DNA from: Escherichia coli
Lineage (GTDB): Bacteria > Pseudomonadota > Gammaproteobacteria > Enterobacterales > Enterobacteriaceae
DNA length: 64,000 nucleotides
Reading direction: 5' to 3' (one strand)
Assembly: GCF_030013595.1 (NCBI RefSeq)
Contig: NZ_CP122768.1
Positions within the stretch are counted from its first letter, which is position 1, and each line of letters begins with the position of its first letter. The notes under the pieces were generated by a model. It was not told the DNA's origin. It made no database searches and saw only the letters and a list, made by a program, of their open reading frames with translations. A program made the translations under genes and the position numbers. Shown here in pieces: positions 21,486 through 56,570 of this stretch.

Positions 21486-22331
21486 TCAGCCACGTCTTGC
21501 ACGCTGGATGTCGCGTATCCGCTGTTTTTCTGCGCGCGCCATCAGATACCAGGCGATAAATCCGACAATTCCGACCGCGCCGAGGATCAATGTTGCCAGG
21601 GCGTTGATTTCCGGATTCACCCCCATCCGCACGCTGGAAAAGACCAGCATCGGTAACGTGGTGGCTCCCGGCCCGGAAACAAAGCTGGCGATCACCAGAT
21701 CATCAAGCGACAAAGTAAAAGCCAGTAACCAGCCAGAAATGATCGCGGGCATGATCATCGGTAGCGTAATGACGAAAAACACTTTCAGTGGCGTCGCACC
21801 AAGATCCATCGCTGCTTCTTCTATCGAGCTATCCAGTTCCCGCAGACGCGACGAAATAACGACTGCCACATAAGCCGTACAGAAAGTGACATGCGCCAGC
21901 CAGATGGTGAGCATACCGCGGTCCGCAGGCCAGCCAATGGCATGAGCAAGCGCGACGAATAACAACAATAGCGACAAGCCCGTGATGACATCTGGCATCA
22001 CCAGCGGCGCGGTGATCATAAAGGCAAAGCCATTTGAGCCGCGAAACCTGCCAAAGCGCACCAGCACGACCGCCGCAATCGTCCCGAGGATCGCCGCCGC
22101 CGTCGCCGCACAGGCCGCAATTGTCAGGCTTAAACCAACCGCACTCATCATCGCGTCATCGCGCAATAATTCGCCATACCAGCGCGTTGACCAGCCGGCC
22201 CACACCGTCACCAGCTTCGAGCTGTTGAATGAATAGATCACCAGCATCAGCATTGGCGCGTAGAGAAAGGTGAAGCCCAGCAGCAAAATCACAATCCGCT
22301 AGGGCGAACGAACTACCGGTAAATTATTCAT
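21486..22331 (-). pseudogene. potI: potI (putrescine ABC permease) with an in-frame amber codon at codon 11 (TGG to TAG, W11*); the track ORF 21486..22292 is the remainder, re-startable at GTG
   Basis: Reverse complement from ATG 22329-22331 reads ATG AAT AAT TTA CCG GTA GTT CGT TCG CCC TAG CGG ATT GTG = MNNLPVVRSP*RIV, where remembered PotI is MNNLPVVRSPWRIVILLL; the ATG overlaps the potH stop (ATGA) as expected for the operon. Confidence 0.6.
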
Positions 22332-23272
22332 CCGTGTTCTCCCACGCTTTTTTGCTGATGCTTGTGGAACCACATTATCGGCACAATTAGCAGCAGCAAC
22401 ATGATGATCGCTACCGCTGAGGCCACCGGCCAGTCGCGGTTGTTAAAGAACTCCTGCCACAGCACGCGCCCGATCATGATGCTGTCCGGGCCACCGAGCA
22501 GTTCAGGGATCACAAACTCGCCCACAGCCGGGATAAACACCAGCATCGATCCGGCAATAATCCCGCCTTTGGTCAGCGGCACGATCACAGTAAAGAACGT
22601 TTTCAGCGGTCGTGCACCGAGATCCAGTGCCGCTTCCACCAGCGAATAATCAATACGAATCAAGGCGGTGTAGATCGGCAGAACCATAAACGGCACGTAG
22701 GCATAAACAATGCCGATATAAACGGCCAGATTGGTATGCAGAATGGTCAGAGGTTGATCGATAACCCCCAGCCACAGCAGAAAATTATTCAGCACGCCGT
22801 TATTTTTTAATATTCCCATCCAGGCATAAACGCGAATCAGAAACGAGGTCCACGACGGCAGGATCACCAGTAGCAATAAGATATTACGGGTCGAAGGCTT
22901 ACTGTGCGCCACCGCCCACGCCAGCGGATAGCCGATCAGTAAACAGCAAATAGTCGAAATCGCCGCCACCTGTAACGACTGGAGATAAGCATCGAAATAG
23001 AGCGGATCGTCGGTCAGTTGCAGGAAATTACCGAGATTAAGAGTGATGGAAAGTTGCCCGTCAGCCCACTCCATCAGTTCGGTATAAGGTGGAATGGCGC
23101 GCGCCATCTCCGCCAGGCTTATTTTAAAGACGATCAGAAATGGCAGCAGAAACAGCAGGATTAGCCAGATATAGGGCAGCGCAATCACCAGTTTGCGCCC
23201 ATGCTTCATTTGCAACTGCGACAGCCACAGCTTAAAGGGTTTTGGCTGGGCAGCAGGTTCAAGTGTACTCAT
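22328..23272 (-). CDS. potH: Putrescine ABC transporter permease PotH
   Basis: 314-aa ORF MSTLEPAAQPKPFKLWLSQLQMKHGRKLVIALPYIWL... Confidence 0.95.
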   Translation of the reverse strand: MSTLEPAAQPKPFKLWLSQLQMKHGRKLVIALPYIWLILLFLLPFLIVFKISLAEMARAIPPYTELMEWADGQLSITLNLGNFLQLTDDPLYFDAYLQSLQVAAISTICCLLIGYPLAWAVAHSKPSTRNILLLLVILPSWTSFLIRVYAWMGILKNNGVLNNFLLWLGVIDQPLTILHTNLAVYIGIVYAYVPFMVLPIYTALIRIDYSLVEAALDLGARPLKTFFTVIVPLTKGGIIAGSMLVFIPAVGEFVIPELLGGPDSIMIGRVLWQEFFNNRDWPVASAVAIIMLLLLIVPIMWFHKHQQKSVGEHG

Positions 23273-23281
23273 CTTTGCTCC

Positions 23282-54178: not shown

Positions 54179-55130
54179 CGGTGTCCCCTTTTTCACGGTA
54201 GATACCGGTGGTTGGCGTATCGCCTGCGTAGCCCCAGGCGCGATACATTCCTTCGGTGTTAAACGGTAGCGCGACATTGCCTTCATGGTCGATAGCGATT
54301 AAGCCACCGCTACCGCCAAGCGCAGGGAGTTTTTCCATTACTACCCGCTCGCAGGCTTCCGCGAGACTTAATCCGCCGTAATCCATTAACGCGGCGATGT
54401 CATATGCCGCCAGCGCGCGGATGAAGACTTCGCCCGTGCCGGTACATGAAACCGCCACACTGGCGTTATTGGCGTAGCATCCGGCCCCCACTAAGGGGCT
54501 ATCGCCAACTCGTCCGGGTAATTTATTGGTCATTCCGCCCGTGGACGTGGCTGCCGCCAGATTGCCGTCTAAATCCAACGCCACGGCCCCCACGGTGCCC
54601 ATTTTCTGTTTTTCATCCAGTGGCGCACCGCTATGGTCGAGAACCATTGCCCCTTCCTCGCGCGCTGCCAGTAGTTGTTCATAACGCAAAGGCGTGGAGA
54701 AAATCTCCGGTGAGACGCGCTCCATGCCATGAGCAAACGCAAAATTTTCTGCCCCTTCGCCAATCATCATCACATGCGGGCTTTGCTCCATCACCAGCCG
54801 GGCGGCAAGAACCGGATTACGCAGATGACTAACGCCCGCCACCGCACCGGCTTTCAGGGTGTTACCATCCATCACACAGGCGTCCAGTTCATGGGTTTCA
54901 TCACGCGTAAAGACAGCGCCAATTCCGGCGTTAAACAGTGGACACTCTTCCAACAGACGCACCGCTTCCGTCACCACATCCAGCGCACTTTCGCCCGCTT
55001 CCAGCATTTTCTGCCCGGTTTCAACAATGGCAGACAACGCCTCGATGTAGCGTAATTCCTGTTGCAGACTCATCTGCGCGCGGCTAATTGCACCTGCGCC
55101 ACCATGAATTGCAATGACTGCTTTGCCCAT
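54165..55130 (-). CDS. iaaA: Isoaspartyl peptidase / L-asparaginase IaaA
   Basis: 321-aa [43 protein letters not shown]... Confidence 0.95.
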
Positions 55131-55333
55131 AGTATTCGTCCATTAAGGGTGGCTCGCCACTTTTGCTATAAATATCAGAATTTTTATGAATTACTCATTC
55201 AATTTTTGAATATAGAAAGATGGATATGGCATGTAAAGGCAGGACCCAGCGCTACGCCCGAGGTGGCATACAGTCTGTGGCGTTTTTCTGACATAATAGG
55301 CAAATTCGATTTTGCCTCCGCAGGAGTGTTTTC

Positions 55334-56570
55334 ATGGAATTTACCACCGGATTGATGTCGCTCGACACCGCGCTTAATGAGATGCTTTCTCGCGTCACCC
55401 CACTGACCGCCCAGGAAACGCTGCCACTGGTACAGTGTTTTGGTCGTATTCTGGCGAGCGATGTCGTTTCGCCGCTTGATGTTCCGGGGTTTGATAACTC
55501 CGCAATGGACGGCTACGCGGTGCGTTTAGCCGATATTGCCTCCGGGCAACCGCTGCCCGTTGCCGGTAAATCCTTTGCCGGTCAGCCGTACCATGGTGAA
55601 TGGCCTGCGGGTACCTGCATTCGTATTATGACCGGTGCGCCGGTGCCAGAAGGCTGCGAAGCGGTGGTCATGCAGGAACAGACTGAACAAACGGACAATG
55701 GCGTGCGTTTTACTGCTGAAGTGCGTAGCGGGCAAAATATTCGCCGTCGCGGTGAAGATATCTCTGCGGATGCGGTTGTTTTCCCGGCGGGAACACGCCT
55801 GACTACCGCAGAGCTGCCAGTAATTGCTTCACTGGGGATTGCCGAAGTTCCGGTGATTCGTAAAGTGCGTGTAGCGCTGTTTTCTACCGGTGATGAACTC
55901 CAGTTGCCAGGCCAGCCGCTGGGCGACGGCCAAATCTACGATACCAACCGTCTCGCCGTACACCTGATGTTAGAACAGCTGGGATGCGAGGTAATCAACT
56001 TAGGGATTATCCGCGACGATCCCCATGCCCTGCGCGCCGCTTTTATTGAAGCCGACAGCCAGGCGGATGTGGTGATCAGTTCCGGCGGTGTTTCAGTGGG
56101 TGAAGCGGATTACACCAAAACCATTCTTGAAGAGCTGGGGGAGATCGCCTTCTGGAAGCTGGCGATTAAACCAGGTAAAACCGTTCGCGTTCGGAAAACT
56201 TTCTAATAGCTGGTTCTGCGGCCTGCCGGGCAACCCGGTTTCAGCGACGCTGACCTTCTATCAACTGGTACAGCCTTTGCTGGCAAAACTAAGCGGCAAT
56301 ACCGCCAGCGGCCTGCCCGCGCGCCAGCGTGTGCGCACGGCATCGCCTCTGAAGAAATCGCCAGGACGCCTTGATTTCCAGCGCGGCGTGCTGCAACGCA
56401 ACGCCGATGGCGAACTGGAAGTGACGACCACCGGACATCAGGGTTCACATATATTTAGCTCCTTTAGCCTCGGTAACTGCTTTATCGTGCTGGAGCGCGA
56501 TCGCGGCAATGTTGAAGCGGGCGAATGGGTGGAAGTAGAACCGTTTAACGCGTTGTTCGGAGGCCTGTAA
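55334..56570 (+). pseudogene. moeA: moeA (molybdopterin molybdotransferase) with a +1 frameshift in the A-run at about 56177-56180; track ORFs 55334..56206 and 56088..56570 are its two halves
   Basis: ORF1 ends ...[21 protein letters not shown]2 in the +1 frame continues ...[25 protein letters not shown]... to the MoeA C-terminus; removing one A from ggtAAAAccg restores [13 protein letters not shown], matching remembered MoeA. Confidence 0.75.

Follow-up and report, generated by a model that had tools for sequence, protein, structure and literature searches.

Four gene disruptions of different ages, two of them amber codons at Dcm sites, in one Escherichia coli lineage

When several broken genes lie close together in otherwise intact core genome, did a single unusual mutational process break them all? 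The question is raised by a 64,000-nucleotide stretch of Escherichia coli DNA (contig NZ_CP122768.1, hereafter called the window), in which a first-pass annotation had noticed two amber codons, in potI and ybjL, and a frameshift in moeA, and had read them as a dense cluster that would fit a lineage lacking mismatch repair, a chemically mutagenized one or a host with an amber suppressor, with consensus error as a fallback. Our analysis favors a different account, to which we assign a probability of about 0.75: the window holds four gene disruptions that are unrelated and differ in age, all in one ordinary E. coli lineage, both amber codons are C-to-T changes at Dcm sites, and neither a mutator, nor mutagenesis, nor a suppressor is needed.

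To check gene integrity, we transferred the gene annotation of strain A10 to the window sequence (Table 1). Four genes are disrupted: potI, ybjL, moeA and nfsA. The two amber codons and the frameshift are present where they had been reported, and the direction given for the ambers, G:C>A:T, is correct (C>T on the plus strand at 22300 and 32059). The interruption of nfsA by IS10 apart, the remark that the remaining core genes are full length also holds, as more than 50 other completely mapped genes have the reference length, lack an internal stop and retain a terminal stop. Relatives carry one to three disrupted genes in the same stretch; in HCP5S3_I2, a pentapeptide gene is split by IS1, nfsA is deleted and rimK and ybjC are truncated, and in the draft L030, ybjJ carries a deletion. 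The density of lesions in the window is therefore only weakly above chance. That both ambers lie in Dcm sites had gone unremarked in the first-pass annotation.

Table 1. Features of the window discussed in the text, in order of position.
Feature	Coordinates	Strand	Detail
ybjT R430H, private G>A	10157	+	at no known methylation motif
potI with amber at codon 11	21486..22331; TAG 22299-22301	-	from translation; relatives have TGG
Former Dam site GATC, now GAGC	22036..22039		T>G at 22038, opposite the other strand's methylated A
Former Dcm site CCAGG, now CTAGG	22299..22303		inner C 22300 to T makes the potI amber
nfsA, IS10-interrupted past codon 104	27500..29560	-	from A10 gene mapping
IS10 (ISVsa5 family) inside nfsA	27919..29247	-	1,329 bp; 402-aa transposase
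ybjL with amber at codon 379	30925..32610; TAG 32059-32061	+	product 378 of 561 aa
Former Dcm site CCAGG, now CTAGG	32058..32062		inner C 32059 to T
rcdA A145T, private C>T (plus strand)	32889	-	outside Dcm and Dam motifs
dacC K126N, private T>G (plus strand)	39640	-	
Former Dam site GATC, now GTTC	46286..46289		A>T at 46287, on the methylated A
Former Dcm site CCAGG, now CCAAG	49514..49518		G>A at 49517, opposite the other strand's methylated C
moeA with one additional A	55334..56570; AAAA 56177-56180	+	relatives have AAA
Intact Dcm site CCAGG	56171..56175		2 nt upstream of the expanded moeA A-run

The distribution of each lesion among related assemblies bears on its age. The potI amber (W11*, TGG to TAG, with C as the ancestral plus-strand base) is common to three drafts, L016, L022 and L024, whose identity to the window is 99.99-100%, and is missing from HCP5S3_I2, the nearest complete genome. 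It occurs independently in L001 and in L017-L019, and NR3736 and L017-L019 carry it on diverged haplotypes (97-98% flank identity); in all, it is found on at least three haplotypes, that is, at least two besides that of the window clone. We read the potI amber as a real allele that the clone has inherited and as a mutation that has recurred at a hot spot within the species. The damage it does may be slight, because it lies at codon 11 of the last gene of the potFGHI operon and is followed by an in-frame GTG at codon 14 (22290-22292), the start of a 268-aa open reading frame; restart at this GTG, three codons after the amber, could rescue the product. NCBI annotates the same allele in NR3736 as a 269-aa PotI with no flag.

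The element in nfsA has the size and transposase length of IS10 (Table 1), IS10 ends and a 9-bp target duplication (CACCGAGCA, at 27910-27918 and 29248-29256), and it is 100% identical to plasmid copies from Shigella flexneri and Salmonella Typhi CT18. Contigs of the drafts L024 and L030 stop exactly at the nfsA::IS10 junctions, consistent with the insertion being a marker of a sub-clade. Among the loci that we fetched, nfsA was lost by at least three routes. One is IS10 at this same 9-bp target; in HCP5S3_I2, ~1 kb between AGCCGCTTAC repeats is deleted, and L021, L023 and L025 carry a deletion of 15.5 kb. In isolate assemblies of unrelated lineages (L031 and L032), contigs end at the same nfsA position. 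Nitrofuran-resistant E. coli can lose nfsA function through IS insertion or deletion. The window resembles such strains in its IS10 with a 9-bp duplication and in the independent nfsA deletions of related and unrelated strains; resistance is their known phenotype and, for the window strain, a presumption, and nfsB lies outside the window. The nfsA::IS10 insertion is probably the sole selected lesion of the four, by way of a presumed nitrofuran resistance.

The other two lesions have a far narrower distribution. The ybjL amber (Q379*, CAG in relatives) is absent from the clone-mates L016 and L030 and was found in 0 of 5,412 complete-genome records. One unrelated sample, L006, carries the identical amber. 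Among the ten matches listed in an exact-protein look-up of the 378-aa YbjL, L006 alone has TAG; the other nine have the wild-type C in contigs that just end at codon 378, which an exact-match query favors, and we rejected them as carriers. The additional A in moeA shifts the frame past K282 and brings a premature stop at 56204-56206, leaving a product of 290 aa instead of 411. In L026, L027 and L028, moeA is intact and encodes 411 aa; an exact 65-mer containing the insertion was found in 0 of 4,122 records, and the 290-aa fragment returned no match in an exact-protein look-up. Over 21.7 kb and 16 kb, respectively, the window is identical to L027 and L028 except at 49517 and at the moeA insertion. 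As far as these assemblies go, the moeA frameshift appears private to this one, as does the ybjL amber within the clone. A single burst is thus not supported, because the potI amber is inherited, nfsA::IS10 is shared by a sub-clade and the ybjL and moeA lesions are private; with ages that differ in this way, the picture of a dense, simultaneous cluster finds no support.

Both ambers come from one type of event, in which the inner cytosine of CCAGG, a Dcm site, changes to T and leaves CTAGG. In E. coli this cytosine is 5-methylated and would deaminate directly to thymine, assuming that Dcm is active here; the dcm and vsr genes lie outside the window. Both stops are amber because the change yields only TAG, and neither TAA nor TGA. 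Polarized with only two outgroups, A10 and NR3736, the lineage leading to the window carries 14 SNPs: nine G:C>A:T, one A:T>G:C, three A:T>C:G and one A:T>T:A. The 141 CCWGG sites in 62,671 bp correspond, if all are methylated, to 282 methylated-C positions (0.45% of positions), and 3 of the 14 SNPs fall on them (P=3e-5); counted against G:C positions, of which the presumed 5-methylcytosines make up 0.89%, they are three of nine G:C>A:T changes (P=5.6e-5). At each of the three positions (22300, 32059 and 49517), CCAGG is ancestral, and either its inner C became T or the partner G underwent the equivalent change. The third, at 49517, is a synonymous, window-private change in gsiD (L98L); a 61-mer containing it is present in 2 of 5,120 complete-genome records. 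Three of nine transitions at 5-methylcytosine would be unlikely at a 10-fold hot-spot strength (P=0.03), and 20- to 50-fold is required. Two of four A:T transversions hit the A that is methylated in GATC (P=0.002), one silent in potI and common to clone-mates (22038), the other clade-wide and causing I26N in dgcI (46287). Dcm- and Dam-methylated bases make up ~1.3% of the window and account for 6 of the 27 SNPs between two close relatives. In E. coli, the methylated bases of GATC and CCWGG are described as mutational hot spots (PMC13250602); none of the three T>G changes is in the "T after GGG" context of the same paper.

Recurrence in unrelated lineages, namely of the potI amber on three haplotypes and of the ybjL amber in L006, is weakened as proof of a hot spot, as the non-Dcm control at 32889 also recurs (6 of 5,421 complete-genome records); a second control, at 39640, was found in 0 of 5,320. 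Look-ups of RcdA A145T, DacC K126N and YbjT R430H returned no match, including within the clone. We also considered import of the ambers by recombination and rejected it: the private changes are widely spaced, and sequences flanking the recurrent alleles diverge within ~115 bp. The closest precedent is in lacI, where Coulondre, Miller, Farabaugh and Gilbert reportedly attributed amber hot spots at CCAGG to 5-methylcytosine deamination in 1978. The motif, the inner C or partner G, the C>T change and the TAG codon are all shared with the window; the lacI mutants were selected, whereas the ambers here are natural alleles of chromosomal transporter genes at sites whose methylation is assumed.

Several other processes could leave such lesions. 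One, raised in the first-pass annotation, is mismatch-repair deficiency; if the lineage were deficient, or hypermutable in another way, its lesions would be part of an excess of transitions and slippage events across the genome. The genes mutS, mutL, mutH and uvrD lie outside the window. MutS and MutL help very-short-patch repair, and their loss raises 5-methylcytosine-to-T mutation, which would fit the Dcm-site ambers. The private branch has 5 SNPs (four of them G:C>A:T) and one homopolymer indel in 62.7 kb, and clone-mates show 0-1 private changes over the parts of the window compared; with counts this small, a somewhat raised mutation rate or an assembly prone to errors would be hard to tell apart from chance. 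The lineage as a whole points the other way. A:T>G:C transitions, said to dominate mismatch-repair-minus spectra (Lee et al. reportedly found this in PNAS in 2012), account for 1 of 14 lineage SNPs against nine G:C>A:T and four transversions, and for none of the five private SNPs, so that the comparison of transitions and transversions with relatives that had been suggested, made here over the window, gives a spectrum unlike that of mismatch-repair loss. Instead of many indels in long homopolymers, the lineage has a single indel, in the 3-nt A-run of moeA, and all 214 homopolymers of at least 5 nt (57 of at least 6 and 11 of at least 7) are unchanged relative to relatives. The window branch equals that of its sister HCP5S3_I2 (14 vs 13 SNPs), and two of the four disruptions are older than the private branch. 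Natural mismatch-repair mutators of E. coli share with the window its transitions, homopolymer indel and several broken genes; the window differs in having no A:T>G:C excess, a branch no longer than its sister and lesions of differing age, and we regard such a defect as quite improbable. A natural "methylation mutator", in which very-short-patch repair is weak (through vsr or the MutS and MutL that assist it) or Dcm is unusually active, strikes us as equally improbable; 5-methylcytosine-to-T changes would then dominate recent mutations and break genes genome-wide as TAG ambers, and in the window two of the four private transitions are on Dcm sites and the moeA frameshift adjoins a third. Chemical mutagenesis fares no better, since the G:C>A:T share of the private SNPs, four of five, does not differ significantly from a spontaneous share of ~40% (P ~0.09) and the specificity for Dcm sites would go unexplained. 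That both nonsense codons are TAG had also suggested a host suppressor tRNA that reads through, and so tolerates, in-frame amber codons, an idea we find hardly credible: conversion of CCAGG to CTAGG forces TAG, each of the several unrelated lineages that carry the potI amber, and the further one with the ybjL amber, would need a suppressor of its own, the 64-kb window contains no tRNA gene, and the moeA frameshift is beyond rescue by any suppressor. Selective agents such as nitrofurans or chlorate might instead have favored loss of nfsA and perhaps of moeA, potI or ybjL, making the clustering a matter of selection rather than of mutation supply. The repeated losses of nfsA, the contig ends at the same position in unrelated isolates and the recurrence of the potI amber on at least three haplotypes would fit, and mutants deficient in molybdenum cofactor are chlorate resistant. 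We nevertheless consider this reading unlikely, as potI, ybjL and moeA have no functional connection known to us, the ybjL allele, like that of moeA, is a singleton, hot-spot chemistry alone accounts for the recurrences, and nfsA alone has well-supported selection.

The reading that competes most closely concerns the private changes only. The ybjL amber, the moeA insertion and the change at 49517 could be errors in the consensus of an assembly built from long reads, probably nanopore, with ybjL and moeA in fact intact: 5-methylcytosine in CCWGG would distort the signal and produce both miscalls (C/T or G/A) and small indels beside the motif. Of the six private changes, three are no more than 2 nt from a Dcm motif, with 32059 and 49517 inside CCAGG and the moeA A-run 2 nt past one (random P=0.02 each, joint ~1.6e-4), and all three are absent from clone-mates. 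The window was also assembled through IS10 where the clone drafts break, implying long reads here and suggesting short reads for the drafts. About 70% of nanopore consensus errors are in Dcm motifs, with homopolymers of at least 3 nt next (Wick et al. 2019, PMC6591954), and methylation errors are mostly transition-like, purine for purine or pyrimidine for pyrimidine (Lohde et al. 2024, PMC11610573). The window resembles such errors in that three private changes fall within CCAGG or 2 nt away; two look like transitions, and the third alters the length of a homopolymer. It differs in that all 214 homopolymers of at least 5 nt agree with relatives, an indel in a 3-nt run being atypical for nanopore, and in that merely 2 of 141 Dcm sites (~1%) are affected, a motif that current R10.4.1 SUP models handle well (PMC11610603). 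Three more private SNPs lie outside any known motif, so the branch has real or random changes anyway; the nine shared SNPs, confirmed by independent assemblies, include one at a Dcm and two at Dam sites; and L006 has the same ybjL amber. The fallback of the first-pass annotation therefore fails for potI, whose amber is confirmed in the drafts L016, L022 and L024, and stays viable for ybjL and moeA, and we place consensus error at all three private sites slightly below even odds. Taken singly, the ybjL amber is about as likely to be real, in which case it would come from 5-methylcytosine deamination, as to be a miscall, and the moeA insertion, which if real would stem from slippage in AAA, is somewhat more doubtful. 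Between fresh hot-spot mutations and nanopore miscalls at Dcm motifs, the choice for these two private lesions is close to balanced, and neither calls for a mismatch-repair defect, mutagenesis or a suppressor.

Should the moeA frameshift prove real, the isolate would be without molybdenum cofactor and hence without nitrate reductase and formate dehydrogenase activity, a phenotype worth knowing, yet no new biology. The reading that we prefer, four unrelated disruptions of different ages with both ambers at Dcm sites, is likewise ordinary, C-to-T change at a methylated cytosine being a classic hot-spot event. It carries a caution for the interpretation of E. coli genomes: a run of pseudogenes that resembles the signature of a mutator or a suppressor may be composed of an inherited hot-spot allele, an IS insertion shared by a sub-clade and two singletons at methylation motifs. 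In their changes at methylated bases, the natural isolates compared here mirror the results of laboratory mutation-accumulation experiments.

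The window spans ybjD to ybiU of the E. coli chromosome, in reversed orientation relative to K-12. Almost every one of 5,426 complete RefSeq genomes aligns to it at 95-99% identity, the closest (99.9%) being those of the UK pig isolates HCP5S3_I2 and LCP30S3_I5. The two amber codons and the moeA insertion claimed by the first-pass annotation are present in the sequence. All other genes of strain A10 that mapped completely onto the window (more than 50) are of reference length and lack internal stops. Separately, a pentapeptide-repeat gene has an uninterrupted reading frame in the window; the annotations of A10 and NR3736 list it as a pseudogene (incomplete), and an IS1 divides it in HCP5S3_I2. 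The toxin-antitoxin pair is also found in the relatives examined, and potH varies in length at its 5' end (945 nt in the window, 954 nt in A10), so that the product has 314 aa in NR3736 and the clade of the window but 317 aa in A10, as in other lineages.

Lesions and neighbouring features, in window coordinates
Feature	Position	Strand	Description
pentapeptide-repeat ORF	12769-14571	minus	600 aa
potI	21486-22331	minus	TAG at codon 11 (MNNLPVVRSP*RIV)
potH	22328-23272		
nfsA	27500-29560		split by IS10; 9-bp duplication CACCGAGCA
IS10	27919-29247		1,329 bp
ybjL	30925-32610		TAG at codon 379
ybjL-rcdA site	~32,781		P2-like prophage site in other E. coli; no prophage in the window
ybjJ segment	34131-34169		~39 bp missing in GCA_018014795.1
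toxin/antitoxin genes	44260-44965		RelE/ParE-family toxin and HTH antitoxin, between rimO and dgcI
moeA			ggtAAAAccg (ggtAAAccg in relatives)
CCAGG before moeA A-run	56171-56175		A-run begins 2 nt past it

The lesions are of different ages, the potI amber and the nfsA insertion being inherited and the ybjL and moeA changes private. Searches of complete genomes with 61-65-mers centred on each lesion found the potI amber in 2 of the 3,732 records that matched, the ybjL amber in 0 of 5,412 and the added A of moeA in 0 of 4,122. Other assemblies of the same clone were retrieved by exact-protein look-ups. In two of them (L016, GCA_012621055.1; L022, GCA_012098455.1) the 16.4 kb to the left of the IS10 site show one SNP (22817) relative to the window, a third (L024, GCA_017839865.1) is identical over 13.2 kb, and all three carry the potI TAG. 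IS10 is absent from nfsA in L016 and L022; the L024 contig stops precisely at the left IS10 junction and that of another clone-mate (L030, GCA_018014795.1, plus 14 similar places) at the right one, and the insertion is therefore a marker of a sub-clade. CAG is kept in ybjL of L016 and L030, and moeA, whose frame shifts after K282 in the window to end the product at 290 aa, is an intact 411-aa gene in three loci (L026, L027 and L028), two of which (L027, L028) match the window base for base across 21.7 kb and 16 kb save for 49517 and the added A. Truly private to the window are the changes at 10157, 32059, 32889, 39640 and 49517 and the moeA insertion; the DgcI and GsiA alleles of the window recur in 136 blocks of the collection and in 6 contigs, respectively, and are therefore clade polymorphisms. 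L030 has no ybjJ gene call, and its gap in that gene (L030 5431-5437) is either another private lesion of this sister genome or an assembly fault.

The potI TAG also occurs on diverged haplotypes (NR3736 and L017-L019, including CP024694.1) whose flanks begin to differ within ~115 bp, and the amber has therefore arisen at least three times. NCBI annotates the NR3736 allele, with no flag, as a 269-aa PotI whose start immediately follows the stop (L001 19217-20026). The window has an in-frame GTG at codon 14, three codons past the TAG (22290-22301); restart there is a plausible route to a mild allele, which may still give a nearly full-length permease.

The two ambers, like the silent change at 49517, each lie in an ancestral CCAGG and alter its inner C or the partner of that base on the other strand, a placement that the first-pass annotation missed. 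Dcm methylates this inner C, and a change of CCAGG to CTAGG can create no stop other than TAG. Amber hot spots at CCAGG in lacI are the textbook case, which the potI and ybjL ambers resemble. Over 62.7 kb, with IS10 left out, the window differs from HCP5S3_I2 (L002, L003) by 27 SNPs and a few indels; polarisation against the outgroups A10 and NR3736 places 14 derived SNPs and the added A on the window side and 13 SNPs and one indel on the HCP5S3_I2 side, so the branches are equal in length. The window-side SNPs comprise nine G:C to A:T, one A:T to G:C, three A:T to C:G and one A:T to T:A change (2 nonsense, 9 missense, 2 synonymous, 1 intergenic); the other branch is likewise missense-rich, as is usual for very recent branches. 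The 141 CCWGG sites of the window supply 282 methylated cytosine positions, 0.45% of bases, yet these account for three of the 14 SNPs (P=3e-5) and three of the nine G:C to A:T changes (P=5.6e-5), which a hot spot of 20-50-fold would fit. Of the four A:T transversions, two (22038, 46287) hit the adenine that is methylated in GATC (P=0.002), as, from its sequence context, does 42470 on the HCP5S3_I2 side. In E. coli the methylated base of either motif, GATC or CCWGG, is a recognised mutational hot spot (PMC13250602).

These observations do not support mismatch-repair loss, chemical mutagenesis or an amber suppressor. Loss of mismatch repair predicts a spectrum rich in A:T to G:C and many indels in long runs, neither of which is seen; moreover, the window branch equals that of HCP5S3_I2 in length, and of the four disruptions two predate the private branch. 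Chemical mutagenesis leaves the Dcm-site specificity unexplained. An amber suppressor is unnecessary, because the CCAGG motif forces TAG, and implausible, given that unrelated lineages carry these ambers too; the 64-kb window itself contains no tRNA gene, and mutS, mutL, mutH, uvrD, vsr and dcm are likewise located elsewhere on the genome. The remaining rival, that the private ybjL and moeA lesions are nanopore consensus errors, stands at roughly even odds with real mutation. The window was assembled through an IS10 that breaks draft assemblies, indicating long reads; nanopore consensus errors fall mainly at Dcm motifs, with homopolymers next (PMC6591954), those due to methylation resemble transitions (PMC11610573), and of the six private changes three lie no more than 2 nt from a Dcm motif (chance ~1.6e-4), the moeA A-run among the sequences so placed. 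However, all 214 homopolymers of at least 5 nt agree with the relatives, the sole indel being in a 3-nt run; the changes touch only two of the 141 Dcm sites; three private SNPs are at no known motif; R10.4.1 models now cope well with CCWGG (PMC11610603); and the methylated-base signature extends to changes that independent assemblies confirm (22300, 22038, 46287). The identical ybjL amber is also present in an unrelated sample (L006, SRR28802099). For the ybjL amber we put the probability of a real mutation at about one half; the moeA insertion is somewhat more doubtful. The L006 locus also carries a P2-like prophage (ogr, gpD, gpU and tail genes; 11807-19662) directly downstream of ybjL, as do other unrelated E. 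coli (L018-L020, 1-777).

The IS10 in nfsA is 100% identical to plasmid copies of Shigella flexneri and Salmonella Typhi CT18. HCP5S3_I2 has a copy upstream of ybjP (L002 17561-18889) that differs from it at 16 positions, and the relatives therefore hold distinct IS10 variants at distinct sites. nfsA has been lost repeatedly and by several routes: by IS10 at CACCGAGCA, the position at which contigs of unrelated lineages (L031, L032; 98.6% identity) also end; by a ~1-kb deletion between AGCCGCTTAC repeats in HCP5S3_I2 (L002 31050-31062), which also clips rimK and ybjC; and by loss of 15.5 kb, from codon 13 of potI to within ybjG (window 22295 joined to 37758), in three SRA samples (L021, L023, L025). 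This recurrence suggests nitrofuran selection.

An unusual mutational history of the strain is thus not supported, the lesions differing in age. What is seen is the well-known tendency of Dcm-methylated cytosines to mutate, or to be misread by nanopore sequencing, and the window belongs to an ordinary E. coli clone that has additionally lost nfsA to IS10.
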